In this document: piece after piece, positions 1,020 to 31,050 of the stretch
Layout of the letters: every line of letters begins with the position of its first letter
Numbering within the stretch: the stretch's first letter is position 1
Assembly (NCBI GenBank): GCA_026705925.1
Contig: JAPOZT010000011.1
Location: 212,857 to 276,856, forward strand
Reading direction: 5' to 3'
Length of the DNA stretch: 64,000 bases
DNA from: Gemmatimonadota bacterium
GTDB lineage: Bacteria; JAAXHH01
Program-made: the position numbers and the translations under genes
Notes under the pieces: generated by a model
Told to the model about the DNA's origin: nothing
Seen by the model: the letters and a program-made list of their open reading frames with translations, nothing else
Databases searched by the model: none

Positions 1020-1829
1020 TTACAGTTTCAGAAACAACCCAATCTCCCAGGCAGGAGCGTCCAGTACGTTGTACCCTCGGGCAAACTTAGTCATGCTGGC
1101 GGCGACCCCGGCATTGGGCGTGACGTATAGGTGGACTTCAGGTCCGTAAGAAAGGTATTGAGAGTCATTTCGATCATTCAATTCGCCAAGTACGTCAACA
1201 CCACGGAACCATACTGAAATTCCCACACGTTCGGCGATGGTATATCCCGCCTCCATGCTATATCGAATTTCGTCCGCATAATCATCTACGGGATTATCGT
1301 CACTTTTCCGGTTGTTGAATCCAAATTCTCCTTTCAAATACGCTGGTAATGGGTAAAGTGAGTGCCCCACCTGCAGCGAGATTTGCTGATTGAATTCACC
1401 GTCTCCGGTCCAAAGGAACTTGGTCTTCTCCGCTTCTCCCAGAGGCAATCCTGCCATCGCCTGTATACTGATGACCGTTGCCCTGTTTGTGAGTAGCCCG
1501 ACCCTTATCCCAATATCCCAGTCACCAACGCCGGTCAACGTTTCGTCACCGTCTATGTTGAGGTGTTTATAGACCGGCATGTAGCCAACGATCGTTAGCC
1601 GGTCAATCAAACCGAATTCACCGTAAAAACTTGTAGTGTAACGGTTAACGGTGACCGGAATATCCCATTGGTCTCCGTTCGGGCGGAATACGGAATTGGC
1701 ACTTACAATCTGCTCGCTGAGTTTGAAGTACCCCTTCCCTTTGGGTTGAGTCCATCCACCCGCATGGGCAATGGAAGTATGGCAGATAACCACACCAACG
1801 AATAAAACAGAGAAGACGAACTTATTCAT
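1020..1829 (-). CDS. outer-membrane beta-barrel protein (porin-like), paralog B
   Basis: It is also 269 aa with a signal peptide (VICHTSIAHA-GGW). It is a tandem paralog of 88..897 with the same length and conserved C-terminal barrel motif. Confidence 0.7.
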   Translation of the reverse strand: MNKFVFSVLFVGVVICHTSIAHAGGWTQPKGKGYFKLSEQIVSANSVFRPNGDQWDIPVTVNRYTTSFYGEFGLIDRLTIVGYMPVYKHLNIDGDETLTGVGDWDIGIRVGLLTNRATVISIQAMAGLPLGEAEKTKFLWTGDGEFNQQISLQVGHSLYPLPAYLKGEFGFNNRKSDDNPVDDYADEIRYSMEAGYTIAERVGISVWFRGVDVLGELNDRNDSQYLSYGPEVHLYVTPNAGVAASMTKFARGYNVLDAPAWEIGLFLKL

Positions 1830-1848: not shown

Positions 1849-3948
1849 CTAGTTGCTAAAAGCATTCGAGGAGATTCGCAAGTCAAACTGCCTGCAATAG
1901 AGGATGATATAGTCGTAAGAGTCTATATCCTTGCCCGATGGGGGTGTAAACGTACTCGTAAAACTCGTCATACCTGTAACTTCACCGAAACTGCGCGCAG
2001 TGCTGGGTAAAGTTTCCCCCACTGCCCAGTCGATGCTCGCTTTCTCGGAAAGAGCCAACCACGTATCGGGGGCGGTGCTCCTGAAACCGGTTATGGTCAG
2101 CTTGAGTTGCCCACCGGCACCTTCACTTAAAGTCACACTCCCAGCAGCTGAATAACTTCCCGAAATCGTAGCCGTTCGGCTCCTCAACATCGGCGGTGGT
2201 GGCGGTGGCGGCGTCGGTGCCGTCACCGTCAGTGTCGCCATGCCGGACTTGCCGTCCACCGATGCCCTTATCGTCGTCGAACCTGCACTCTTACCCGTTG
2301 CCAACCCGGAGGAGCTGATCGTTGCTTTCGATGTATCACTGCTCGTCCAGGTAAAGGTCTTGCCCGAAATCACCGTGCTGTCCGATTCAAAGGCCATCGC
2401 GGAGAACTGCTGCGTCTCCCCTTCTTCGATCGATGGGGACGATGGAGACACGGTGACCCGGTCCACTACCGGGGGCGGAGGAGGAGGTGGCTCGGTCACG
2501 GTCAACATCGCCGTGCCGGACTTGCCGTCCACCATCGCTGTAATCGTTGTGGAACCGGCTTCCATTGCCGATGCCAGACCTGACGACGAGTTGATCGTCG
2601 CGACCGTCGTGTTGCTGCTCGACCACGTAAAGGTCTTGCCCGTGATCTCCATGTCGTCCGCGTCAAAGGCTGTCGCGGTGAACTGCTGCATCTCCCCTTC
2701 TTCTATCGTCGCGGTCATGGGCTCCACGGCAACCCGAACAACCTCCGGCGGTTCGGCAACCGTGACGGTTACCGGATCGGAAGTCGTTTCTTCCGTCATG
2801 GCGGTAATGTCCGCCATACCCGCGCCGACCGCGGTAACCAGCCCCGTCGTATCAACGGTCGCCACCCCAATGTCGTCGCTCGACCACGATATAGTCGCGC
2901 CACCGATCATGGTCCCGTCTGCAGTCCGGGCGACGGCCATGAGCTGAAGCGTTCCGCCGATTTCGAGCATTGCAGGCATGGCGTCCACAATCTCGACACT
3001 GTCTACCATCGGCGCCGATTCCGCCACGGTGACCGTCGCAGGCATGCTCGTCACGTCATTCCCTGTGGCCGTTATCATGGCCGTACCGGCGGCGACGGCC
3101 GTTACCATCCCGGATCCATCCACCGTGGCGACTTCCGGATCATCGCTCATCCAGGTGAATTCCACGTCATCAACCACCATGCCGTCGGCCGTCATGGCAA
3201 CGGCCGTGAACTGGAACATGCCTCCGACCATGATCATCATGGAAGCCGGACGCACCGTCACGGTGGCCACCACCGGCTCGGGCGGCGGCGGTTCGGCCAC
3301 GTTGATCGTTACCGGCGAACTCGAAATACCATCCGCCGTGGCGCGGACCATGGCCGAACCGGCGTCGACGGCCGTGGCCACGCCGGCGGAAGTGATGGTC
3401 ACTACGCTGGTGTCGCTGCTCGCCCAGATGATACTGACATCACTGCGGATCGCGCCGCCTGCCGTCCGGGCCGTTGCCGTAAAAGTGACCATTTCCCCAA
3501 CCATCAACTCCTGGGTCGAGGAAGGAGAGACCGTGACGTTGGCCACGGCGGCCACGGTGACCGTGATCGTCACCGCCGCACTCGAAACGCCGTTCCCCGT
3601 CGCCCGGATGGTGGCCGTTCCGGCGGCCACGGCCGTGACAACCCCGTTGTTGATGGTAGCCACGGCGGTATTGCTGCTCGACCAGGTAAAACTGACACCG
3701 CTGATCACGGTGCCGTCGGAAGCCTTGGCGGTCGCGACAAATCGTTGTGTCCCTCCTGCTTGCAGCGTCGCCGTGCTCGGACTGACTTCGACTACGGAGA
3801 CCGTCGGCGCGGGCGGCGGCGTGGGCGGCGGAGATGGTGGGGTAGGGGCCGGCCGGGTCGGTGATTCGCCGCCGCCGCAACCCACGGTCCAAAGGCCACC
3901 TGCCAGGACCAGCATGGCAAAACGAGTCGTTATCAATCGGATCGACAT
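1849..3948 (-). CDS. Big_2 (bacterial Ig-like group 2) repeat surface lipoprotein
   Basis: At least six repeats of about 80 aa match the Big_2 pattern (V..V.V.P....L..G....L.A.V....), separated by Pro-rich linkers (PPPPPPP). The likely true start is MSIRLITTRFAMLVLAGGLWTVGC, a lipoprotein signal with a lipobox Cys, at 3948. The 69 codons upstream in the ORF track are Arg/Lys-rich with no signal peptide and are probably not translated. Confidence 0.75.
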   Translation of the reverse strand: MSIRLITTRFAMLVLAGGLWTVGCGGGESPTRPAPTPPSPPPTPPPAPTVSVVEVSPSTATLQAGGTQRFVATAKASDGTVISGVSFTWSSSNTAVATINNGVVTAVAAGTATIRATGNGVSSAAVTITVTVAAVANVTVSPSSTQELMVGEMVTFTATARTAGGAIRSDVSIIWASSDTSVVTITSAGVATAVDAGSAMVRATADGISSSPVTINVAEPPPPEPVVATVTVRPASMMIMVGGMFQFTAVAMTADGMVVDDVEFTWMSDDPEVATVDGSGMVTAVAAGTAMITATGNDVTSMPATVTVAESAPMVDSVEIVDAMPAMLEIGGTLQLMAVARTADGTMIGGATISWSSDDIGVATVDTTGLVTAVGAGMADITAMTEETTSDPVTVTVAEPPEVVRVAVEPMTATIEEGEMQQFTATAFDADDMEITGKTFTWSSSNTTVATINSSSGLASAMEAGSTTITAMVDGKSGTAMLTVTEPPPPPPPVVDRVTVSPSSPSIEEGETQQFSAMAFESDSTVISGKTFTWTSSDTSKATISSSGLATGKSAGSTTIRASVDGKSGMATLTVTAPTPPPPPPPMLRSRTATISGSYSAAGSVTLSEGAGGQLKLTITGFRSTAPDTWLALSEKASIDWAVGETLPSTARSFGEVTGMTSFTSTFTPPSGKDIDSYDYIILYCRQFDLRISSNAFSN

Positions 3949-3956
3949 ACATCCTC

Positions 3957-3989
3957 CCGCCGTATCGTAAGCTTCCGTCGTATCGTAAG
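3957..3989. repeat. 15-bp direct repeat CCG(C/T)CGTATCGTAAG x2, separated by CTT, in the dnaE/Big_2 intergenic region
   Basis: Read directly from the sequence at 3957-3971 and 3975-3989, immediately 5' of the Big_2 lipoprotein start on the minus strand. Confidence 0.6.
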
Positions 3990-4067
3990 TTACCGCCGAG
4001 TTGTTAGGCTTCGCTGCCAACATTTGCAGCCGGCTACGCGTAGACCTGTTTCCAGCTCCTCGTAGCC

Positions 4068-7000
4068 CTATTTCCCGTTTCCGTTTCCGCGCCCGTCCCC
4101 GTTCCAGCGGCCTCGGCCGTTTCGCTTCCGGCCGTTCATCTCCACCGGTTTCCATCCGCTTTCACCGCTGTGCGCGGGCGCGCCGGCCAGCCGGACCCGT
4201 TTCGCGCCGCTGGACTCCCGCAGGGTCTTCAGCAGCTCGTCCGTGGGCCGGACCTGGAGGTGGTTCCCCGCCCTGACGCCGATCTCGCCGTGATCGGCCG
4301 TCGACACTTCGAGCACCACGTCGCATTTTCCCGGGTAGGTCTCCAGCACATCCTTGAGCGACGCGAGATTTTCATCCCCGACCTGTTCGTACTCCATAGA
4401 CAGCACGACGGACCGCGCCAGCCGGTCCCGTGCATCCGTCAACGCGATGATCTCGGAGGCGATAACCTTGTTGTCCTCTTCTTTTTTCGAAAGGTGACCG
4501 TTCACGAGGATCAGCGCGTCGATCGACACAAGATCGCGGTACAGGGCGTAGGGTTCCGAAAAAACGAGCACTTCGCCGGATCCGGAGAAGTCTTCGAGCG
4601 TGACGAAGGCCATGGTCTTGCCGTTCCGGTCCACGATGGGCTTGATCTCGGTCACGATACCGCCCACCACGACACCGTCCGACCGGCCGTTGGCGAGTTC
4701 GAGGCGGCGCATCTCCGCCGTCGTGAACGCCCGGATGTCTTCCTCGTATTCCTTCAGCGGGTGCCCCGTCACGTAAAATCCGAGCAGTTCCTTCTCGAGG
4801 CCCAGTTCCTGGCTGGCCGCCCACCGGGGGACCATCGGCAGCACGGGCTTGTGCACTTCCAACCCGGAGCTTCCTCCCATGCCGTCGAGGTCGAAGAGGG
4901 AGGTCTGTCCCTTTTCCCGGTCCTGCTGGCGGGTCTGCGCTCCTTCGATGACCGAATCGAGCACGTCCATGAGCTGCGCCCGGTGTCCCTCGAGGCTGTC
5001 GCAGGCGCCGGCCTGGATCAGAGACTCGAGCACCCGCTTGTTGACCAGCCGCAGATCGATGTGCTCGCAAAGCCCGAATACATCATCGAAGGTTCCATGT
5101 TCCTTCCGTGCCTCGACGATGGATTCCACCGCGGCCTGCCCCACGTTCTTTATGGCGCACAGCCCGAACCGGATCGAGCGGCCTTCCACGACGAAGGTCT
5201 TGTCGCTTCTGTTGACGTCGGGCGGCAACACTTCGATGCCCATCTTCCGGCATTCGTTGATCAGTACGACGATTTCCTCGGTATTGGACATCGTGTTTGA
5301 CAACAGCGCCGCCATGAAGGGCACCGGGTAGTGCACCTTCAGATAGGCCTCCTGAAAGGCGAGTACGGCATAGCCCGCCGAATGGCTCTTGTTGAACGCG
5401 TAGCCGCCGAAATACTCGATCAGGCCGAAGACCTCTTCCGCGATGCCTTTCTCGATGCCGTTCTCCACGGCGCCGTCGACGAAATTCCGCCGCTCTTCGG
5501 CCATGACTTCGGGCTGCTTCTTGGCCATGGCCTTCCGGAGGAAATCGGCGCGGCCCAGGGTGTAACCTGCCATGTCGCGGGCGATCTGCATCGCCTGTTC
5601 CTGGTAGACGATGAGACCGTACGTCTCCTTCAGGGCCGTTTCCATCACGGCGTGGTGATAGGAGACCTCCTTGCGTCCGTGCTTGCGGTCGATGTAGTCG
5701 TCCACGACCCCGCCGTTCAGTGGGCCGGGCCGGCAGAGCGCGTTCATGGCGATCAGGTCGTCGACGCCGTCCGGCCGGAGCCGACGCAGGAATTCGTGGA
5801 GCCAGCCGCTGTGGAACTGGAAGATCCCCGTGGTCTCGCCCCTGCGGAACAGGTCGAGGGTCTTCGTATCGTCCAGGGGAATGTCGTCCAGCTCGATCTC
5901 GTCGCCCGTCGTGTCCTTGATGATGGCGAGGGCGTCCTGGATGACGGACAGGTTCTGCAGCCCAAGGAAGTCCATCTTGGGCAGGCCGATGTCCTCCATG
6001 AGCTCGCCGGGATACTGGGTGACGATCGTATCCTTGTTGCTCGGCTTGTACAACGGCACGTAGTCGGTCAGTTCGCCCGGCGTGATCACCACGCCCGCCG
6101 CATGCACGGACGCGTGGCGGGCCAGGCCTTCCAGGGTCCTGGCGTACTGGATCAGCTGGCCTTCCGTTCCGCCGCCGTCAGCCATCTGCTTCAGTTCCGG
6201 GACCTGGTCGAGGGCCCGGTCGAGGGTGATCTTCAGTTCACCGGGCACCAGCTTGGCCACGCGGTCCACGTCGCCGTAGGACATGCCCAGGACGCGGCCC
6301 ACGTCGCGGATCGCCGCCTTCGCCCCCATGGTGCCGAAGGTGATGATCTGGGCCACGCTGTTCTTGCCGTATTTCTCCACCACGTAGTTGATGACCTTGT
6401 CGCGTTCGCGGTCCGCGAGGTCGATGTCGATGTCGGGCATGCTGACGCGCTCGGGATTCAGGAAGCGTTCGAAAAGCAGCCCGTACTCGATGGGGTCGAT
6501 GTTCGTAATGCCCAGCACGTACGCCACCATGCATCCCAGGCCGGACCCCCGCGTCATGAGCGGGATCCCCTGCTCCGCGGCGAACCGGGCGATGTCCTCG
6601 ACGATGAGGAAGTAGCTCGGATAGCCCATCTGGCCAATGACGCCCAGTTCGTATTCGAGGCGGGCCTTCAACTCGGGGGTGATGGAGTCATACCGCTTCT
6701 CCATGCCGTCGAAGGACAGCTTGCGCAGGTAGGCGTCCGCGCTGTCATATCCTTCGGGCAGCGGGAAGTGGGGGAATTTGAACTGGCCCATTTCCAGCTC
6801 GAATTCGATGGACTCGGCGATGGAGACGGTGTTGGCCAGGGCCCCGGAAACGTGGCCGAACAGCTGGCTCATCTCCTCGGCGTTCTTGAAGTAGAGCGAA
6901 TCCGTGGCGAACCTGAGCCGCTTGGGGTCGTTCAGTTCCTTCCCGGTCTGAATGCAGACCAGCACGTCCTGGGCGGGGGCGTCGCCCTGCTTCAGATAGT

Positions 7001-23755: not shown

Positions 23756-25108
23756 ATGTACCGGACCCTTTTCTGGTTCCTCCTCCCCCTCGTCATCACC
23801 GAACTGATCTACGAACTGGGCATCCAGGTCATCAACGGCGGCATCGCCCGTGTGCCCCGGCCCACCGAAACCCTGGCCGCGTACGGTATTGCCTGGGGGC
23901 TGACGTCTTTCCTGACCGGCACCGTCTCCCAGACCCGGCAGATGTCCATGGTCCTCGTCCGGGACCGGGCGACCTTCCACACCGTGCTTCGATGCGTCGC
24001 CGGTTTCGGTGGTGTGCACTTTCTCATCCTTGGGTGTCTGGCGTTTACACCGGTGGGACTATGGGTGATCGACGAGCTTCACGCCGTGGACCCGATCCTC
24101 GGCGGCACGGTGCGCAGCGCGCTCGGACTCCTGCTGCCCATACCGCTGATCGTGGGCATCACGAGGTTCCTGTCGGGTCTGCTGTTGCGGGTGAGACGGA
24201 CCGACATCATCAGTTATGCCATGATGGCGGGCATCAGCATGAGCGTGGTGTCCGTGTTCCTGTTCCTCCCGACGCCGACCGTCCAGGCCGATCCCATATT
24301 GCTGCCGGTGGCCGCGACCTACTTCGGCGTCCTGACGGAATTGGTTGTGATCATCTATGGCTACCGGCGATTCGTCCGGCGGACACTGAAGCGGTCGAGC
24401 GGGGAAATCGTAAGCGAGGAAATCGAAGGGGGACGAGCGGCCGGGCAGGATGCGGCCGGCGAACCGGTCTCCCGGAGACAGCACCCGCTGACCGCCGCCT
24501 ACGTACTGCGGTTCTATTGGCCCCTGGCCGTAACGATCGGCATACAGGCCTTGAGCCGGCCCATCATCAACCTGTTCGTCGCCCGGGGCGCGGACGGCAC
24601 GGAATCCCTGGCCGTGCTCACCATCGTGTACGCCCTTGCGCATCTGCCCTACGGGTGGCTGAACGAACTCAAGAACCTGCCGCCCGCCTTTCAGCGACAG
24701 GACCCGGAAGGCCGGATCATCCGACGGTTCACGGCCATCTGCGGTCTGATTTCCTTTGGGACCATGGTCCTGATGTTCTGGACCCCGGTGAGGTTCTTCC
24801 TGCTGGAGTCCCTGATCGGCGTGGATCACGATTTCGCCGTGCGCTGCACCGTGCCGCTGATCATCTTTTCCTTTTTTCCCCTCGCCGTCACGATCCGGTC
24901 CTATCTCCACGGGATCGCGCTGCGGGACCATCGGACAGGCGCGATCGCACCGAGCGGACCCGCCCGGGCCGGCGCGATCGTCATCGTCGTGAACGTACTC
25001 GCGCTCTTCGATCTGCACGGGGCGATCCGCGGCGTGGCCGCCCTCTACAGTGGGTTTGTCACGGAAACGATCGTGGTCCGGTGGCGCATGGGCAGAAGGC
25101 GCGGCTAG
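23756..25108 (+). CDS. polytopic inner-membrane protein (MATE/MOP flippase-like, about 12 TM)
   Basis: The 450-aa protein has about 12 hydrophobic segments in two halves separated by a charged loop (GEIVSEEIEGGRAAGQDAAGE). No specific family motif was recognised. Confidence 0.5.
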   Translation: MYRTLFWFLLPLVITELIYELGIQVINGGIARVPRPTETLAAYGIAWGLTSFLTGTVSQTRQMSMVLVRDRATFHTVLRCVAGFGGVHFLILGCLAFTPVGLWVIDELHAVDPILGGTVRSALGLLLPIPLIVGITRFLSGLLLRVRRTDIISYAMMAGISMSVVSVFLFLPTPTVQADPILLPVAATYFGVLTELVVIIYGYRRFVRRTLKRSSGEIVSEEIEGGRAAGQDAAGEPVSRRQHPLTAAYVLRFYWPLAVTIGIQALSRPIINLFVARGADGTESLAVLTIVYALAHLPYGWLNELKNLPPAFQRQDPEGRIIRRFTAICGLISFGTMVLMFWTPVRFFLLESLIGVDHDFAVRCTVPLIIFSFFPLAVTIRSYLHGIALRDHRTGAIAPSGPARAGAIVIVVNVLALFDLHGAIRGVAALYSGFVTETIVVRWRMGRRRG

Positions 25109-26367
25109 CTGGCCGTCTCCCTCCATCCCTTCGTGATGTCCAGGAAGGCGTCGATGTCCTGCTCGTTGTTGAACATGGCGGGACCCACGCGGATCTGGGT
25201 GTTGTTCTCCCGGAAGGACAACCAGACCCCCGTGTCGTTAAGCTGCTTTTCAATCACTTCGTGGTCGGCGGCGTGGTTGAAGGAAACGATGGCGGACTGA
25301 TTGCTGGCCGGCGTGAAGACCTCGAACCCCTGCTCGGTCAATCCGTTGTGCAGGCGGTGCGCCAGGGCCACCGTGTGCTGCTCGATCCGGTCTGTTCCCA
25401 CGTTCAGCAGGTAATCCAGCGACGCGGAAAGCTGGTAGATCGCCGCGAAGGCGGGGGTGGCGTATCCAAACTTCCTGGCGTCGGTGTAAAGCGTGTACTG
25501 GAAGTCGGGAAGCCTTTCGTCCACCATTCTCCATCCCAGGCGGTCGGGCTTCACCACGTCCATTACCGATTCCCGCACGTAGAACGGCGCTACGCCGAAG
25601 CCGCCGAGTAGCCACTTGTACGACCCCGTGGTGAGGAAATCGACCCCGGTCGGTCCGACGTCGAGATCGACCATGCCGACCCCCTGGACGGCATCCGCGT
25701 ACAGGTAGGCGCCGCTAGCATGGGCCACGTCCGCCAGGGCATTAAGATCGTGACGGTAGCCGTTCCGGTTGGATATCCAAGCCACGGAGACCAGCTTCGT
25801 CTTCTCGTCGACCATCTCGGCGAAGGCTTCGGGCGAAGCCACGCCGTCCACGTTCCGGACGATGCGCGTTTCGATGCCCAGGGTCTCGGCCAGCTGGCTG
25901 TACATCACAAACGACGTCATGTAGTGAAGATCGTCGATCACCACGTTGTCCCCGGCCTGCAGGGCCAGGGAGTTGACCACGATGTTCTCGCCCTCGCTGG
26001 TGGAGGACACCAGCCCGATCTCGCTCAACTGTGCCCGGATAAGGCGCGAGAACTTCTCCCGCACGGCTTCCTCTTCATCGAGCATGGCGCGCAAATGGAC
26101 GGGATCGCGGGACTTGGCCGCGAGGAACTCGATGGTCTTGTCCACCGCGGGCTGTGGCGAGGGACCGATGTAAGGCGTATTCAGGTAAAGGTTATCGCCG
26201 GCGACCGGAAAATCCGTGCGTACGCCCAGGGGATCGTCGCCGGAGGGAGGCGCGGCGCTGACATCCGCCGGGACCTGGTCCGATTCGTCGCTGCATGCTA
26301 GTCCTGCGGCGCCGGCGAGGGCGGCCGTGGACACGACGCCCATGAACTCCCGTCTCGATACGGACAT
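25105..26367 (-). CDS. class V PLP-dependent aminotransferase/desulfurase-like enzyme with a Tat signal (probable Tat-lipoprotein)
   Basis: The N-terminus carries the Tat motif SRREFMG followed by a hydrophobic region and LACS (a lipobox-like Cys). The PLP lysine context TGSYKWLLGGFG is typical of fold type I class V enzymes such as SufS/IscS and isopenicillin-N epimerase. Confidence 0.7.
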   Translation of the reverse strand: MSVSRREFMGVVSTAALAGAAGLACSDESDQVPADVSAAPPSGDDPLGVRTDFPVAGDNLYLNTPYIGPSPQPAVDKTIEFLAAKSRDPVHLRAMLDEEEAVREKFSRLIRAQLSEIGLVSSTSEGENIVVNSLALQAGDNVVIDDLHYMTSFVMYSQLAETLGIETRIVRNVDGVASPEAFAEMVDEKTKLVSVAWISNRNGYRHDLNALADVAHASGAYLYADAVQGVGMVDLDVGPTGVDFLTTGSYKWLLGGFGVAPFYVRESVMDVVKPDRLGWRMVDERLPDFQYTLYTDARKFGYATPAFAAIYQLSASLDYLLNVGTDRIEQHTVALAHRLHNGLTEQGFEVFTPASNQSAIVSFNHAADHEVIEKQLNDTGVWLSFRENNTQIRVGPAMFNNEQDIDAFLDITKGWRETAS

Positions 26368-26503
26368 GAGTTGCTCCTTTGCATCTTGGCTAGGATGAAT
26401 CTTGGCTGGGATTAACTGGTATGGGGTGTGCAGACACGGTATGGAGGCCGTGGGAAAGCGTCAAGGAAAGAACAGGTCAGTCCGCCTAAGTTGTCCAATC
26501 ACA

Positions 26504-26515
26504 CCTGTATTTAGG
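26504..26515. repeat. left copy of the 12-bp direct repeat CCTGTATTTAGG bracketing the low-GC island
   Basis: This copy matches 11 of 12 positions with CCTGTATTTAAG at 30901-30912. It lies at the GC-content transition on the left side of the island. Confidence 0.45.
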
Positions 26516-26702
26516 ATGCAAAAAGTTGGGTGTTTGTCACAATACAGGATGATTAGGGGTACATCTTGACATGGATGTGATTAACTTGTTCCTTCGTTTT
26601 AGATTATCTCTGCAACATACTACTTTATACATAACGAGCCTTTCGTTAGTGCCAGGAAAGGCATGGTTATCTACATGTTCACCACGCAGACAGGAACGAT
26701 AG

Positions 26703-27806
26703 TTGAAACTTCCTACCTACGAAGAAATCTCGAGCGACGAGAAGCAATTGGAAGTTCGGGAGTGGCCGCCTAATGAGTCACTTTTTGTCGTAGGACCACC
26801 GGGATCAGGTAAGACAGTATTGGCGGTTTTACGCGCTGAAATGGTATCTGAGTGGGCAGAAGAAAAAGATGTTATACTTGTAACCTACAACCGTATGCTA
26901 AGAAGGCTACTGGATTTGCTAGATAGAAGCGGTGTGAATGCGTCAACCATGCACAGTTTTGTATGGAATCATTATACCCATGTTACTAAGGAGGATGTGC
27001 CTACGCTACAAACAAACTCCTATGTTTATAATTGGAAAAACATGATAAGTCACCTAAGTCAATCAAGTGTGTCTTCCTCCCTCTCTTGTTTAATTGTAGA
27101 CGAAGGACAGGATCTTCCCGTCGACTTCTTTAGATACACTGCTAGATTTGTCGCCAAAACTCTCACAGTCTTTGCCGACCAAGATCAGGCTATTGGCGAT
27201 CGGCACACAACTCTTGAACAAATCAAGGGGGCTACAGGCTTAGATGACCCTATTATCCTACAAAACAACCATCGGAATACACCAGAAGTGGCAAGGGTTG
27301 CTGAGCACTTTCACAGCGGACTCTTGCCGGCTGCTAAGGTATCCCGAAATTCCATTGGAGAGGTGCCACGATTAGTTAAGACACGAGACATCGATCATGT
27401 GGCAGTACTAGTTTCGAATTGGCGACAAACTCGGGGAGGATCGGTAGGCGTGATTGTTGTACGAAATGAAACGGGAATTGCACTCCATCAAAAACTCAAG
27501 GATCGGCTTTCAGGAACGCGTGTTGACATCTACAGGAACGACGATAAAAACGAAAATAGTATAAATGTTCTAAATGACGGAGTGACGGTTCTAAATAAGG
27601 AATCGGTTAAAGGACAGGAGTTCGACACAGTATTCATCTTGGAAATCGAGCACCTCATTCCCATCGCCAACGATACAGACCGTCGAGCTATGTATATGAT
27701 GTGCTCCCGAGCTCGAGATCATTTGTTCCTTATTTATGGTCCAACTGAACTCACGGTTCCAGCTGCGGAAGCACTACCAGGACCGGAAATCCTTGAACGA
27801 GTTTAA
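26703..27806 (+). CDS. compact UvrD/PcrA-like superfamily 1 helicase/ATPase (367 aa)
   Basis: SF1 motifs are present: Walker A GPPGSGKT, motif II IVDEGQD, motif IV-like NHRNT, motif V VKGQEFDTVFI, and motif VI MCSRARDHLFLIY. The start is a TTG codon. The GC content of about 42% contrasts with about 65% in the flanking DNA. Confidence 0.75.
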   Translation: MKLPTYEEISSDEKQLEVREWPPNESLFVVGPPGSGKTVLAVLRAEMVSEWAEEKDVILVTYNRMLRRLLDLLDRSGVNASTMHSFVWNHYTHVTKEDVPTLQTNSYVYNWKNMISHLSQSSVSSSLSCLIVDEGQDLPVDFFRYTARFVAKTLTVFADQDQAIGDRHTTLEQIKGATGLDDPIILQNNHRNTPEVARVAEHFHSGLLPAAKVSRNSIGEVPRLVKTRDIDHVAVLVSNWRQTRGGSVGVIVVRNETGIALHQKLKDRLSGTRVDIYRNDDKNENSINVLNDGVTVLNKESVKGQEFDTVFILEIEHLIPIANDTDRRAMYMMCSRARDHLFLIYGPTELTVPAAEALPGPEILERV

Positions 27807-27808
27807 CT

Positions 27809-30019
27809 ATGGATAAAGACGTACAGACTTCTATGAGATTCGACAGAGTTGCTGAAACGAATTCTAATAGTGAGTTCGACGGTAATAATGGCCCTTGGTT
27901 TGGTTTGAGTTTGCATCATCGCCGGCTGTTAGATTCCCTTCAAGACGGCTGGTTGCGTCCTCCTGGCGAAAAGACCGGTCTGATATTAGGTAACTCAGCG
28001 TTCGTTAGCGAGCAGTTTGAGACGGGGAAACACACTATCATAGTTCAATTGAAGTTCGTTGCAGATAAACTTCCTAGCCTCGATGTGTTCGTCCTGCGTG
28101 GTGAACGTTGGTTTCCTTGCAAGCTAATGGAAATTGAATCATCTGATCATACTGTTTATTGGCCGGGTTCCCTCCCTACTTTCGCAGTTTCTGCCTTGTA
28201 TGTTAAAAACGATCAGGAACGTATACGGCTCAGTACCTTAGCCCGTCAGTTTTCAAACTTGTCTCTACCCATAGACGTAACAGTCAACACTACAGAATCC
28301 ATTTCACCACAACACCAACACGAACCCCCAGAATCGAATAGAAGGATCGACATCCCGCACGATGAGGATGCGATCCGCGGTGCCATGAGCATGGCTGTGT
28401 GGGCTGTACCTAAAACCGACCCATGGTTGGAACTACTAGTGACAAGTCTGTCCTTTGATAATAAAAAGACCACTAAATCGGCTGCCAACGTGGAGGCGAA
28501 TTGGTGGAGAGTTCCACCATGGAGTGATTGGCCCAACAATGTCAAAATTAAAGATCTTCAGGATGGTTTTTGGCGGTCTGCAATTGAAGTCTTCAGTGAA
28601 CATTCTGGACAAAGTGGTGTTAGTCCGTACGTACTCGCCGAGAAAATCAAATCTAAGGCTGATAGTGCTTACTGTACCGACTACTCGTCGACTGATACCT
28701 CTGCGTGGCTAGACAATACAAACCAAATACTTCGAGCGGATTCTGTTTTTAGTGTAATAAACTGGCAACATAATCCTGTTGGGAAGGCTATCCAACTAGT
28801 ACTGACACGTCCCGAGCCAGACAACTTCAAGACCTGGCGTCGAGATATACACGACCTTCCCCCGATAGTGTGGTGGTCTGCAGCTGTTCTGTGTGGACTC
28901 AAACATGGTTACAAGAGGTTGAATCTGTGTTTTCGAGGTGAAGTACCACTCCAAGAGGCACTTACAATACATGCATTGCAGTCATGTAATTTGTCCTTGA
29001 AAAACATGAAATGGCCATCTTTGACAGGTGATCCAAATTGGCGCAGGAATGGAGATGGATTTGAACTGCTTTGGGGAAACGCGGTTATTGCACAAAAACA
29101 AGGAAATGCACGTAGCCGATGGTATGTAGCTGACTTCAAAAAAGATCTGATCCGGTCTAGCGCAGTGACATTAGCGAAGGAATTGAATTGGACTTGTCTA
29201 CGCCAAACACTCCAGCTTAAGTCTGGTCAGATTGCCTATTCTGGTACAGGCGAAATCGAGATCCGAGACCATAGACTCGCTATTCATGGAGAAATAACCT
29301 TGGAAATGCCATCGAACGTGGACATTCGCTCTGAATTGGATGTCGAATCCTTTCGTCATCTAGTCGCGGTGTCTGCCGGACAGCTTCCAGATCCGCCACA
29401 GGTAGTCGCTCAGGTATCTATATCAAAAAACCACATCATCACCGGACTCAATTACGTACCAGATTTTGTAAGTGAGACCGAAGAAGCAGAACTCGTCGCG
29501 AAAATAGATTCGAACGTATGGCTAACTGATATAAAAAGGCGCGTACAACATTATGGTTGGCGATACGATTATGCTAATCGGCAGGTAAATCCAGCTATGC
29601 GTATTGACGATCTGCCAGATTGGGCTATTGAAATCGCCCATCGACTAGTTGATCAGAAGCTTGTCAAACAGATGCCGGATCAGTTGATAGTCAATGAATA
29701 CAAAGGCAGCCAAGGAATTGGTAGGCACATTGACAGTGAACCGTACTTTGCCGATAACATTGCCATGATCAGCTTACTTGAATCTTGGGAGATGGTTTTT
29801 CGACAGAAATCCAACAGTAAAATCAAGCATAATATAATGTTAGACAACAGGAGCGTGGCAATTATGAGCGGGCCTGCTCGCTACCTGTGGACTCATGAAA
29901 TACCGAGCAGGAAATACGAACCGGGTCCCGAATTGCTCGATGGGAAGAGATCAAGGAAGTTACGAAAACGTCGTCTTTCGCTCACATTCAGGAAAGTACT
30001 TCACGAGATTCTTCGGTGA
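27809..30019 (+). CDS. fusion protein: N-terminal region of about 540 aa with no recognisable family, plus a C-terminal AlkB-type 2OG-Fe(II) dioxygenase domain
   Basis: The C-terminal 200 aa align motif by motif with E. coli AlkB. RRVQHYGWRYDY matches the AlkB N-terminal lid. LIVNEYKGSQGIGRHIDSEP matches the AlkB Fe-binding HxD motif. ARYLWTHEI matches the distal His. RRLSLTFRKV matches RYNLTFRQ, the 2OG-binding Arg pair. The gene starts 3 nt after the helicase stop, indicating translational coupling. Confidence 0.75.
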   Translation: MDKDVQTSMRFDRVAETNSNSEFDGNNGPWFGLSLHHRRLLDSLQDGWLRPPGEKTGLILGNSAFVSEQFETGKHTIIVQLKFVADKLPSLDVFVLRGERWFPCKLMEIESSDHTVYWPGSLPTFAVSALYVKNDQERIRLSTLARQFSNLSLPIDVTVNTTESISPQHQHEPPESNRRIDIPHDEDAIRGAMSMAVWAVPKTDPWLELLVTSLSFDNKKTTKSAANVEANWWRVPPWSDWPNNVKIKDLQDGFWRSAIEVFSEHSGQSGVSPYVLAEKIKSKADSAYCTDYSSTDTSAWLDNTNQILRADSVFSVINWQHNPVGKAIQLVLTRPEPDNFKTWRRDIHDLPPIVWWSAAVLCGLKHGYKRLNLCFRGEVPLQEALTIHALQSCNLSLKNMKWPSLTGDPNWRRNGDGFELLWGNAVIAQKQGNARSRWYVADFKKDLIRSSAVTLAKELNWTCLRQTLQLKSGQIAYSGTGEIEIRDHRLAIHGEITLEMPSNVDIRSELDVESFRHLVAVSAGQLPDPPQVVAQVSISKNHIITGLNYVPDFVSETEEAELVAKIDSNVWLTDIKRRVQHYGWRYDYANRQVNPAMRIDDLPDWAIEIAHRLVDQKLVKQMPDQLIVNEYKGSQGIGRHIDSEPYFADNIAMISLLESWEMVFRQKSNSKIKHNIMLDNRSVAIMSGPARYLWTHEIPSRKYEPGPELLDGKRSRKLRKRRLSLTFRKVLHEILR

Positions 30020-30058
30020 ATATCAAAGTACTTATCTCAGAGTAAATACGTTGTTGAG

Positions 30059-30898
30059 ATGGAGTATTGGTTGACTACACAACTGCCCCGATGGTTGGTC
30101 TCTCTCCGATCCAGCGTAGTCGTCGAGCCTGTCAGGAACGATCCCCGTACAGTTGAGCATACTGTTTTTGGTATCGATCTCAAGACTGCACAAAGAAAAG
30201 TCTTGGCTAATGGACAGGCAAACTTCGACAAGTCGTGGAACGGTCTCTCCCCACACGATCGTGCACTCGTATATGCCTACTTAAATCAACTAGGTCACCT
30301 AGAAGAACTGGTCGAGGCTTTTCGACAGCTATTTAAAGACCAAGAACCTCCTAACGAAACTATACTCATAGATATCGGTTGCGGACCATGTACAGGAGGT
30401 CTTGCATTCACCAGTGTTTATTCTAACACAGCACGATTTGATTATATCGGAGTGGATCGTTCGCAAACTATGCGAGAACTGGGTGAGCTAATGGCAGCTA
30501 CCGCTACACAAATGAATGAGGTAAATCGGCAGTGGATTGCAGACATTACATCTGCAAAATGGAACAGTGCCCCTGGCTGGCGACCGATTATTGTTGTCGT
30601 ATCGTACCTGCTAGCGAGCCCGACATTGATCCCTGGACAACTCGTTACTCAACTCGAAACTCTTCTACGGAAAATTGGCAATGGTCCGGTTACTGTACTT
30701 TATACCAACTCAAATCAACCTATCGCCAATCTTAAGTTCCCGGAGTTTAACGATTCACTAAATAAAATCGGTTTCAAGTTATATGCTGACGACGAAGGCG
30801 AGATTGTTGTCTCACGTAGGGATGGATCCACAAAACGCAATTTCAGATATGCCTTGTTCCATCGCCCTTTGAAACGAATTCTAAAGCTAGATAACTAG
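30059..30898 (+). CDS. class I SAM-dependent methyltransferase (substrate unknown)
   Basis: Motif I ILIDIGCGPCTGG (E/DxGxGxG) is followed by an acidic post-I residue (YIGVDRS). There is no (D/N)PP(Y/F) motif, so it is not a typical N6A/N4C DNA methyltransferase. The GC content is low and the gene is in an operon with the AlkB fusion. Confidence 0.7.
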   Translation: MEYWLTTQLPRWLVSLRSSVVVEPVRNDPRTVEHTVFGIDLKTAQRKVLANGQANFDKSWNGLSPHDRALVYAYLNQLGHLEELVEAFRQLFKDQEPPNETILIDIGCGPCTGGLAFTSVYSNTARFDYIGVDRSQTMRELGELMAATATQMNEVNRQWIADITSAKWNSAPGWRPIIVVVSYLLASPTLIPGQLVTQLETLLRKIGNGPVTVLYTNSNQPIANLKFPEFNDSLNKIGFKLYADDEGEIVVSRRDGSTKRNFRYALFHRPLKRILKLDN

Positions 30899-30900
30899 GT

Positions 30901-30912
30901 CCTGTATTTAAG
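30901..30912. repeat. right copy of the 12-bp direct repeat (CCTGTATTTAAG), 3 nt after the methyltransferase stop
   Basis: Read directly from the sequence, as for the left copy. Confidence 0.45.
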
Positions 30913-31050
30913 TCTCTCCTCTAGTGGAATATAGTAGCATTACGGTAGTGCTTCGGTATCTGGTTTTCTGTGTTTTCCAACACTCAACATGCAAAGTGCA
31001 ATGTCTAGCGCGGATTGGATTAATTACTCATTAACATAAGGGGTTAGATC

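Follow-up and report, generated by a model that had tools for sequence, protein, structure and literature searches.

A horizontally mobile bacterial cassette of an Rsm22/METTL17-related methyltransferase, an ALKBH8-like AlkB fusion protein and a helicase

The action of an AlkB oxygenase and a class I S-adenosylmethionine (SAM)-dependent methyltransferase on one substrate is known from ALKBH8, the tRNA wobble-uridine enzyme of animals and plants, which has an RRM-AlkB-ZnF arrangement and in animals is fused to a Trm9-like methyltransferase. In this animal fusion, 5-methoxycarbonylmethyluridine (mcm5U) is channelled from the methyltransferase to the hydroxylase, the two activities being sequential and not antagonistic (PMC4051686). 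Bacterial ALKBH8-like AlkBs demethylate 3-methylcytosine (m3C) and repair etheno adducts in vitro; their physiological substrate is an acknowledged open question, and RNA modification is the role favoured for the canonical ones by the authors of that study (PMC4051686). On the methyltransferase side, Rsm22 and METTL17 are ribosome-associated, methyltransferase-like factors of mitochondrial small-subunit assembly, and the PADLOC collection lists the C3a159 methyltransferase as an uncharacterised candidate type III CRISPR-associated gene, present for example on plasmids pAQ5 and pAQ6 of Picosynechococcus PCC 7002. Reversible modification of single-stranded DNA by ADP-ribosylation is the business of DarT/DarG, a mobile, defence-associated system with toxin-antitoxin and anti-phage functions. 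Arrays of methyltransferase, AlkB and superfamily 1 (SF1) helicase are found in the replicases of plant positive-strand RNA viruses (Flexiviridae and Closteroviridae), in which a repair function on the viral RNA genome is ascribed to the AlkB. Here we describe a bacterial locus that brings these three activities together. It was reached from the methyltransferase gene at 30059-30898 of a 64,000-nucleotide stretch of a Gemmatimonadota genome (assembly GCA_026705925.1, contig JAPOZT010000011.1, positions 212,857 to 276,856; hereafter the window). A preliminary description of this gene had recognised the methyltransferase and its AlkB partner; what that picture lacked was the helicase, a region of 540 residues that precedes the AlkB domain, and the mobile, defence-like character of the whole. 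The real object is larger than a single gene, namely an obligate methyltransferase-AlkB-helicase cassette, which we tentatively take for a possible nucleic-acid methyl writer and oxidative eraser joined in one complex and serving defence or abortive infection.

The triad was sought in one genome per species, which yielded 63 loci, all of them in metagenome-assembled genomes (MAGs). It is spread over about 60 genomes of at least 8 phyla, and its carriers include Gemmatimonadota, Acidobacteriota, Gamma- and Alphaproteobacteria, Nitrospira, Synechococcus, Chloroflexota and Planctomycetota. In essentially all loci with an intact methyltransferase gene and enough flanking sequence, this gene is adjoined by those for the helicase and for the AlkB protein with its N-terminal domain. 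The usual gene order is methyltransferase-helicase-AlkB and that of the window's clade helicase-AlkB-methyltransferase, while in one lineage the helicase is fused to the N-terminal domain and AlkB in a single open reading frame of 1114 residues. In the window the three genes lie on one strand, separated by 2 and then 39 nucleotides (nt), and promoter-like or terminator-like sites inside the cassette show no excess over chance, so that the genes most likely form one operon. The operonic pairing of the methyltransferase with an AlkB, claimed in the preliminary description, is therefore not a peculiarity of this genome: the same-strand arrangement with its 39-nt gap belongs to an association which recurs in essentially every locus and in several architectures. 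No fourth conserved gene was found near the cassette, whose flanking genes are unrelated between loci. The GC content of the cassette lies below that of its flanks in 55 of 58 loci, by a median of 5.8 percentage points and by 17 points in the window. The cassette is horizontally mobile.

A phage origin was considered and rejected, as tblastn gave no match among 50,697 phage genomes; a single IMG/VR contig carries the triad, and it has no PHROG-positive genes within 8 kb. Metagenome contigs seeded on the 540-residue region gave 5 loci, all of which end at the side that would be informative for an orphan AlkB. Among L017 with L058 (both in the MAG CBDCTH01), L030 with L033 (both in CATQHX01), L062, L063 and L066 there are genomes that hold two copies of the cassette, or an intact copy and a decayed remnant, and several partial deletions, in which the methyltransferase gene lacks its 3' portion and the helicase gene in some cases also its 5' portion, the AlkB gene being intact. 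Many carriers (L007, L011, L018, L026, L034, L038, L047, L050, L051, L054, L061 and L064) come from bins named SB06xx, COSx, RHOx or APA, which, judging by these names, would be series of sponge-microbiome MAGs. An enrichment of the cassette among symbionts of sponges, across several phyla, is conceivable and would fit with frequent horizontal exchange in that habitat.

A search at E<=1e-3 gives 462 homologues of the methyltransferase, which as a rule are 50-65% identical to it along the whole length and are all without a name. Motif I (DIGCGPCTGG), motif II, in which the acidic D133 ends beta2 within YIGVDRS, and about 45 further positions are invariant across 42 aligned members. With so many relatives and such invariant motifs the gene is a real one, and the intact motifs indicate an enzyme that is catalytically competent. 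The clear motif I and acidic post-I residue of the preliminary description are confirmed (residues 105-114 and D133); both are common to all class I methyltransferases and do not discriminate membership among the amino-methyltransferases. In the beta4 or motif IV region the protein reads VVVSYLLASP, and the family as a whole xIVSYLLASPT. A regular-expression search of the whole protein for (D/N/S)PP(Y/F/W) gave zero matches, the PC and ENV motifs of C5-methyltransferases are missing (the sole PC dipeptide falls within motif I), and no Pfam family of DNA methyltransferases is matched. The AlphaFold2 model, built with 42 homologues, has a mean predicted local distance difference test score (pLDDT) of 90.3 and a predicted template-modelling score (pTM) of 0.89. 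It consists of a seven-stranded Rossmann fold preceded by a mostly helical N-terminal extension of about 95 residues, of the Rsm22/METTL17 type, and it contains neither a target-recognition domain nor any extra domain resembling one. Since motif IV and the target-recognition domain are both absent, the methyltransferase is not a classical N6-adenine or N4-cytosine amino-methyltransferase, as the preliminary description had argued on the same two grounds. Helicases and methyltransferases are combined in Type I, Type III and Type ISP restriction-modification systems as well as in BREX and DISARM, and one distant variant of the present cassette fuses nuclease, helicase and methyltransferase. Nevertheless, a classical restriction-modification enzyme, labelling the host's own DNA on exocyclic amines or on C5, is very improbable in view of the missing motifs, domain and family matches, and of the fact that no nuclease was detected in window-type cassettes.

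At the level of ancestry, Rsm22 (PF09243) is the only specific Pfam family matched. The window protein scores 21.0 bits (E=2.5e-4) against a gathering threshold of 23 bits, which makes it a distant relative of Rsm22 and not a member, and 20 of the 42 family members match at E<=0.01, the best at 3.8e-6. The first two ranks in Foldseek are METTL17 chains (8css_7 and 8csp_7) with TMq values of 0.60-0.61, whereas generic class I methyltransferases reach about 0.4-0.47. In the PDB profile search the METTL17 alignment spans residues 55-142, including the helix before motif I. As an offshoot of the Rsm22/METTL17 lineage, though a divergent one, the methyltransferase shares with it the methyltransferase fold and this helical element. 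It differs from that lineage in size, since the METTL17 chain has 456 residues and the window protein, with 279, ends directly after beta7 without the C-terminal part, and completely in genomic context. A further relative is the PADLOC model PDLC01079 ("C3a159 methyl transferase"), which the window protein matches partially (positions 55-211 of 265, E=4e-12) and the pAQ6 methyltransferase at 4.9e-136; on these scores the window enzyme and C3a159 would be separate subfamilies of one superfamily. Across Pfam, PDB profiles and Foldseek no strong match to a characterised non-nucleic-acid methyltransferase family, of the kind that would have refuted the preliminary description, was found, the best relatives being those just named.

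It has to be considered, all the same, that the substrate could be a protein, such as one of the partners of the enzyme, or a small molecule, which the AlkB-like domain would then hydroxylate or demethylate. VVSYLLASP is a motif IV region of a kind often seen in enzymes that methylate small molecules or proteins, many methyltransferases of natural products and of protein N-termini appear in Foldseek with similar E-values, and the family is not basic. ALKBH4 is an AlkB homologue reported to act on proteins. Action on proteins is mentioned for ALKBH1 as well (PMC4051686). Such a substrate is nonetheless quite improbable when set against the recurrent partners of the methyltransferase, which comprise three kinds of SF1 helicase, a Dna2-like nuclease, SAP and WYL domains and a KTI12/PNK-like kinase, against the position of ribosome-bound METTL17 as its best specific relative, and against the finding that no biosynthetic genes are conserved near the cassette.

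The AlkB partner is itself a composite protein of 736 residues (27809-30019, + strand), in which the AlkB domain occupies only the last 190 or so. Its Fe(II) triad and 2-oxoglutarate (2OG) ligands are invariant in 46 sequences. Among PDB sequences searched with phmmer, ALKBH8 (1.2e-21) is followed by P8A3.02c (Ofd2) of S. pombe (3e-13) and the DNA N6-methyladenine (6mA) demethylase NMAD-1 (1e-7), with ALKBH2 at merely 7e-3; ALKBH6 is also among the closest matches. In Foldseek, ALKBH8 takes the first rank, and the lid motif RRVQHYGWRYDY aligns with RRVKHFGYEFHY of ALKBH8, both having the form RRVxH(F/Y)G. These comparisons indicate a domain that is ALKBH8-like and not of the EcAlkB/ALKBH2/3 repair type. 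In agreement with this, the earlier idea that the AlkB partner reverses ring-N methylation is upheld as far as the pairing goes and weakened by the type of AlkB; with an ALKBH8-type domain, for which the precedent is sequential, reversal is only one of two live readings.

The other is a sequential hypermodification as in ALKBH8, by which the methyltransferase would place a methyl or methyl-ester group on a nucleotide, for instance a tRNA or rRNA base, and a stable hypermodified nucleotide would result from hydroxylation of this group, or of a carbon next to it, by the AlkB domain. The helicase or kinase could remodel or recruit the RNA, and the role of the mark might be to shield host RNA against toxins or to change the nucleic acid of an invader. 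This explanation draws on the rank of ALKBH8 as the top match in both sequence and structure, with a shared lid motif, on the channelling of mcm5U from methyltransferase to hydroxylase in the animal enzyme, and on the RNA-modification role favoured for the bacterial proteins (PMC4051686). The KTI12-like kinase of the pAQ variant described below and the Rsm22/METTL17 ancestry likewise point to tRNA or rRNA, and gene fusions and translational coupling classically arise from enzymes of one pathway. On the other hand, the methyltransferase does not resemble Trm9, the sampled architectures include no direct fusion of methyltransferase and AlkB, and the retention of AlkB in decayed loci is not predicted by such a pathway. 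The sporadic spread by horizontal transfer, the lower GC content and the links with CRISPR, Abi, reverse transcriptase and Mokosh-like genes fit a conflict system better. We place sequential hypermodification on the unlikely side, as the main rival of the writer-eraser mechanism set out below.

The N-terminal 540 residues of the AlkB protein form a highly conserved domain set that is predicted to be well folded and is without detectable relatives. In the AlphaFold2 model it is predicted to be alpha/beta at residues 30-160, helical at 186-393 and beta-rich at 409-521. No relatives were found in Pfam (searched with the single sequence and with 13 members), PADLOC, NCBIfam, PHROGs or PDB sequences and profiles, and a Foldseek search of PDB and BFVD with the full-length model was swamped by AlkB matches. 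An equivalence with the SAP-2CompART/2CompARG protein of the distant variant L069 was rejected, the hhalign probability being 0.1% with the sequence and 1.2% with the profile. Pfam detects neither an RRM nor a ZnF in the AlkB-fusion protein.

The third member of the cassette is a compact, UvrD-like SF1 helicase. Its PADLOC matches are NERD+UvrD (1.4e-16) and GajB, its PDB matches HelD (1e-5) and Schlafen helicase domains, and Viral_helicase1 of Pfam is matched at 1.2e-3 by the window protein and at 1.2e-9 by its L069 orthologue. The catalytic residues of methyltransferase, AlkB and helicase are all invariant. The cooperation of an AlkB with a helicase has a precedent in human ALKBH3-ASCC3, and that of a kinase with a methyltransferase in bacterial Pnkp-Hen1 RNA repair. 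A non-defence role in alkylation-damage repair or RNA quality control could be built on these precedents: AlkB and helicase would mend single-stranded DNA or RNA that bears methyl or etheno lesions, and the methyltransferase would be protective or regulatory, shielding ends or 2'-O positions in the manner of Hen1-Pnkp or methylating a protein partner. The AAA_33/PNK-like kinase of the pAQ variant and the position of window-type cassettes among ordinary metabolic genes are in keeping with this proposal, as is the repair of m3C and etheno adducts by bacterial ALKBH8-like enzymes in vitro (PMC4051686). However, it leaves the strict co-inheritance, translational coupling and occasional fusion of the methyltransferase unexplained, the patchy mobile spread and the CRISPR, Abi and Mokosh-like links are atypical of repair genes, and the methyltransferase has no Hen1-like features, Hen1 being matched neither in the Pfam scan nor in Foldseek. 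A repair or quality-control role is unlikely in our estimation.

Further evidence was obtained from distant variants of the system. An exhaustive profile search with the methyltransferase returned 578 representative clusters, 76 of them below 1e-30. In the second-tier architectures the methyltransferase is each time followed by an AlkB with the lid RRVQHYG(Y/W), the stop codon of the one gene often overlapping the start codon of the next, while the methyltransferases fall to 28% identity (profile E about 1e-22 to 1e-31) and the NTPase partner changes. The METHYLTRANSFERASE-AlkB pair is the ancient core of the system. On plasmids pAQ5 and pAQ6 (L067 and L068), a P-loop kinase of the AAA_33/KTI12-like type with WYL and WCX domains precedes the methyltransferase, 28% identical to that of the window, which is followed by an AlkB of 204 residues, 40% identical to the window domain (2e-48). 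The pAQ6 copy lies directly after a type III-B Cmr module, and the pAQ5 copy among a reverse transcriptase, an abortive-infection (Abi) protein, a restriction endonuclease and RelE. A homology of the pAQ5 kinase-WYL protein with the window helicase was examined and rejected, because the match is confined to the P-loop and the two are therefore different NTPases. Picosynechococcus PCC 7002 is cultured and genetically tractable, and with two copies of the kinase-WYL/methyltransferase/AlkB locus on two plasmids it offers a ready experimental system.

In two other loci (L069 and L070) the same small helicase is followed, in this order, by a SAP protein annotated as a "2-component system ADP-ribosyltransferase", a methyltransferase joined to an unassigned domain, and AlkB, so that a domain of the ADP-ribosyl-transferase type shares an operon with the methyltransferase/AlkB pair. 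The SAP-ADP-ribosyltransferase protein has 591 residues (2107-3882 of L069 and 1920-3695 of L070), with PF22546 and PF22545 (2CompARG) on record. In L071 (1979-6271) a Dna2-like nuclease, a helicase of the Upf1/MOV10 type and the methyltransferase are fused in one protein of 1430 residues, again followed by AlkB, and the helicase part matches MkoA/MkoC of the Mokosh system at 9e-56. Such nuclease-helicase-methyltransferase fusions measure 1430-1471 residues and make up at least three clusters at 50% identity (P0340, P0358 and P0370). An N-extended methyltransferase of 671 residues precedes AlkB in L080, and on the short contigs L078, L079 and L082 the truncated gene past the methyltransferase fits the conserved N-terminal pattern of these AlkBs. 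Taken together with the triad loci, the nucleic-acid-handling partners comprise SF1 helicases, a KTI12/PNK-like kinase, WYL and SAP, alongside the Rsm22/METTL17 and ALKBH8 ancestries of the core pair. The methyltransferase works with this type of AlkB and with a nucleic-acid-handling NTPase, and the module behaves like a mobile conflict element; both points are firm. From them we infer a base methylation on single-stranded RNA or DNA whose product is the substrate of the AlkB.

In the mechanism that we tentatively favour, the three proteins would form a single complex whose target is single-stranded nucleic acid, with RNA a more probable target than DNA. The helicase would expose the single strand, and the methyltransferase would write a methyl group on a base, the methylated base being the substrate of the tethered ALKBH8-type dioxygenase. 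The methyl lesion would block replication or translation, and its oxidative removal by the dioxygenase would keep the writer harmless in uninfected cells, until invasion tips the balance between writer and eraser and leads to defence or abortive infection. The m3C demethylation and etheno repair of bacterial ALKBH8-like enzymes make erasure chemically plausible. The inclination towards a writer and eraser comes from the defence-type associations, from the fact that window-type cassettes show no other effector, and from the asymmetry of decay among the loci. In this regard, the AlkB gene is disrupted 2 times and those of the methyltransferase and helicase 5 times each, although AlkB makes up 53% of the cassette length (exact multinomial p=0.016 for its under-disruption); these are 12 events in MAGs, some of which may be assembly indels, a caution that counts against leaning on them, so that the retention of AlkB in decayed loci is only suggestive of an "antidote" role.

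Other observations weigh against the writer-eraser mechanism as well. No recurrent defence neighbour of window-type cassettes was found, their flanks being metabolic, and no nuclease or other obvious effector was detected in them. The methyltransferase family is not notably basic (median isoelectric point 5.8), and its fold, as modelled, reveals no substrate. The function of the 540-residue region could change the picture, and ALKBH8, the closest characterised AlkB, works sequentially with its methyltransferase and not against it. A more specific version, which we hold to be rather unlikely, would make the cassette a new form of anti-phage or anti-plasmid immunity, in which a base-methylating SAM enzyme acts as an "alkylating" agent on invader or host single strands, AlkB keeps it in check, the N-terminal region serves as sensor or scaffold and the helicase drives the process.

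The cassette can be compared with the systems introduced above. It resembles ALKBH8 in the AlkB domain and in its pairing with a class I methyltransferase, and differs in having neither RRM nor ZnF, in an Rsm22-like instead of a Trm9-like methyltransferase, in the novel 540-residue region and the need for an SF1 helicase, and in its mobile and sporadic distribution. The likeness to DarT/DarG would be one of logic, by analogy, with adjacent base-modifying and modification-removing genes and, in most variants of the cassette, the putative writer upstream of the eraser. Here the chemistry is SAM-dependent methyl transfer and Fe(II)/2OG oxidation instead of NAD+-dependent ADP-ribosylation and a macrodomain, a helicase is added, and neither an ART nor a macro domain occurs in the cassette proteins of the window. 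The C3a159-type loci have a related methyltransferase, only 28% identical and followed by the same type of AlkB, and sit in defence islands; they have the kinase-WYL-WCX protein in place of the helicase and a stand-alone AlkB without N-terminal region, and no cas genes lie within about 5 kb of the window cassette. The viral arrays include polyproteins of Flexiviridae and Closteroviridae that appear among the structural matches of the AlkB domain (Foldseek, BFVD), yet the viral methyltransferase is an alphavirus-type capping enzyme and not of the Rossmann class I, and no evidence of common descent links the two arrangements. The Mokosh likeness is limited to the MkoA/MkoC-like helicase of one distant variant, the window helicase being compact and UvrD-like; Mokosh is not known to have a methyltransferase or AlkB component. 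By its membership features the cassette is outside the DNA amino-methyltransferases, Rsm22 proper, eukaryotic-type ALKBH8 and DarTG, and we rate it as a modification-based, helicase-assisted conflict module assembled from components of known superfamilies. A full-text literature search found no paper describing a conserved methyltransferase-AlkB-helicase cassette, we know of no system of this kind, and its sole trace in curated resources is the PADLOC model of the sister methyltransferase subfamily.

Within the window, the cassette is preceded by a conserved non-coding block of about 85 nt (Table 1) with the pattern ACATCTTGACA…TTGTTCCTT / CTGTTCCTT…AGATTAT…(A)CAAC…ATAT. In 5 of the 6 aligned loci it lies 136-141 nt from the helicase start (120 nt in L006, with a degenerate anchor), and across the six its conservation is far above that of the proteins downstream, which are about 62-66% identical. 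Counterparts are found in L001 (about 4498-4585), L004 (about 3471-3560), L005 and L072, and the region of the ribosome-binding site, CAGACAGGA, is likewise conserved. RNAalifold gave no conserved RNA fold for the block (-0.63 kcal/mol) and Rfam no match, and it is probably a promoter or operator and not a structured RNA. As for RNA components or integration signals, there is no Rfam match and no tRNA in the window, and boundary repeats are only short and at chance level.

A second conserved intergenic block, CACGGTATGG..CCG.GG.AAGCGTCAAGGAAAGAA, adjoins the divergent aminotransferase gene (Table 1), to whose promoter or leader it may belong; it too is without Rfam match. The neighbours of the cassette in the window and in the syntenic locus L001 are this aminotransferase, an SGL-family protein, an SSF transporter and a MacB-type transporter. 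A 15-nt sequence, TGAAACGAATTCTAA, is exactly repeated in direct orientation close to the 5' end of the AlkB-fusion gene and close to the 3' end of the methyltransferase gene; in 5.6 kb, chance alone would give about 0.015 pairs of this kind. At the start of the window, in a stretch of lower GC (53%), two tandem paralogues of 269 residues each, 55% identical to one another and of no Pfam family, are hydrophobic at the N-terminus and carry ...FLKL at the C-terminal end. Both are possibly outer-membrane proteins, and they adjoin a gene for a protein of 768 residues with six Big_2 Ig-like repeats.

Table 1. Coordinates of the cassette, its motifs and other features of the window.
Feature	Position (nt)	Strand	Remarks
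Tandem paralogues	88-897, 1020-1829	-	269 residues each
Protein with Big_2 repeats	1849-4155		768 residues
Divergent aminotransferase gene	25105-26367	-	
Low-GC island with the three-gene cassette	26368-31050	.	45.3% GC vs 62.3% elsewhere in the window
Second conserved intergenic block	26430-26475		
Conserved non-coding block upstream of the cassette	26554-26640	+	six aligned loci
Compact SF1 (UvrD-like) helicase/ATPase, 367 residues	26703-27806	+	Pfam AAA_19 2e-10, UvrD_C_2 2.6e-6
Helicase Walker A, GPPGSGKT	26793-26816	+	
Helicase motif II, DEGQD	27099-27113	+	
Helicase motif V, KGQEFD	27609-27626	+	
Helicase motif VI, SRARD	27705-27719	+	
N-terminal region (about 540 residues) of the AlkB-fusion protein	27809-29428	+	Trp-rich, strongly conserved; AlphaFold2 pLDDT 86.3
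Direct repeat, copy 1	27853-27867		15 nt
ALKBH8-type AlkB Fe(II)/2OG dioxygenase domain, residues 547-736 (type from sequence matches)	29447-30019	+	Pfam 2OG-FeII_Oxy_2 4.8e-23
AlkB lid motif, RRVQHYGWRYDY	29537-29572	+	
AlkB HxD, H640 and D642	29726-29734	+	
AlkB distal His, H696 (WTHEI)	29888-29902	+	
AlkB 2OG-binding RRLSLTFR, residues 721-728	29969-29992	+	
Class I SAM-dependent methyltransferase, 279 residues	30059-30898	+	ATG start; divergent Rsm22/METTL17-like ("C3a159-like") family
Methyltransferase motif I, DIGCGPCTGG	30371-30400	+	residues 105-114
Methyltransferase motif II, YIGVDRS	30443-30463	+	D133
Methyltransferase beta4/motif IV region, VVVSYLLASP	30593-30622	+	
Direct repeat, copy 2	30870-30884		15 nt

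If the product of the methyltransferase is the substrate of the AlkB, the cassette would provide a natural methyl writer and eraser, or else a methylate-then-hydroxylate pathway, for bacterial nucleic acids. It would also supply a defined pair of enzymes for a direct test of what bacterial ALKBH8-like proteins act on, and might represent a new enzymatic logic in prokaryotic immunity. Should the immunity reading prove true, this would be the first case of an AlkB dioxygenase at work in a defence system, and it would give the bacterial ALKBH8-like proteins their long-sought physiological role and substrate.

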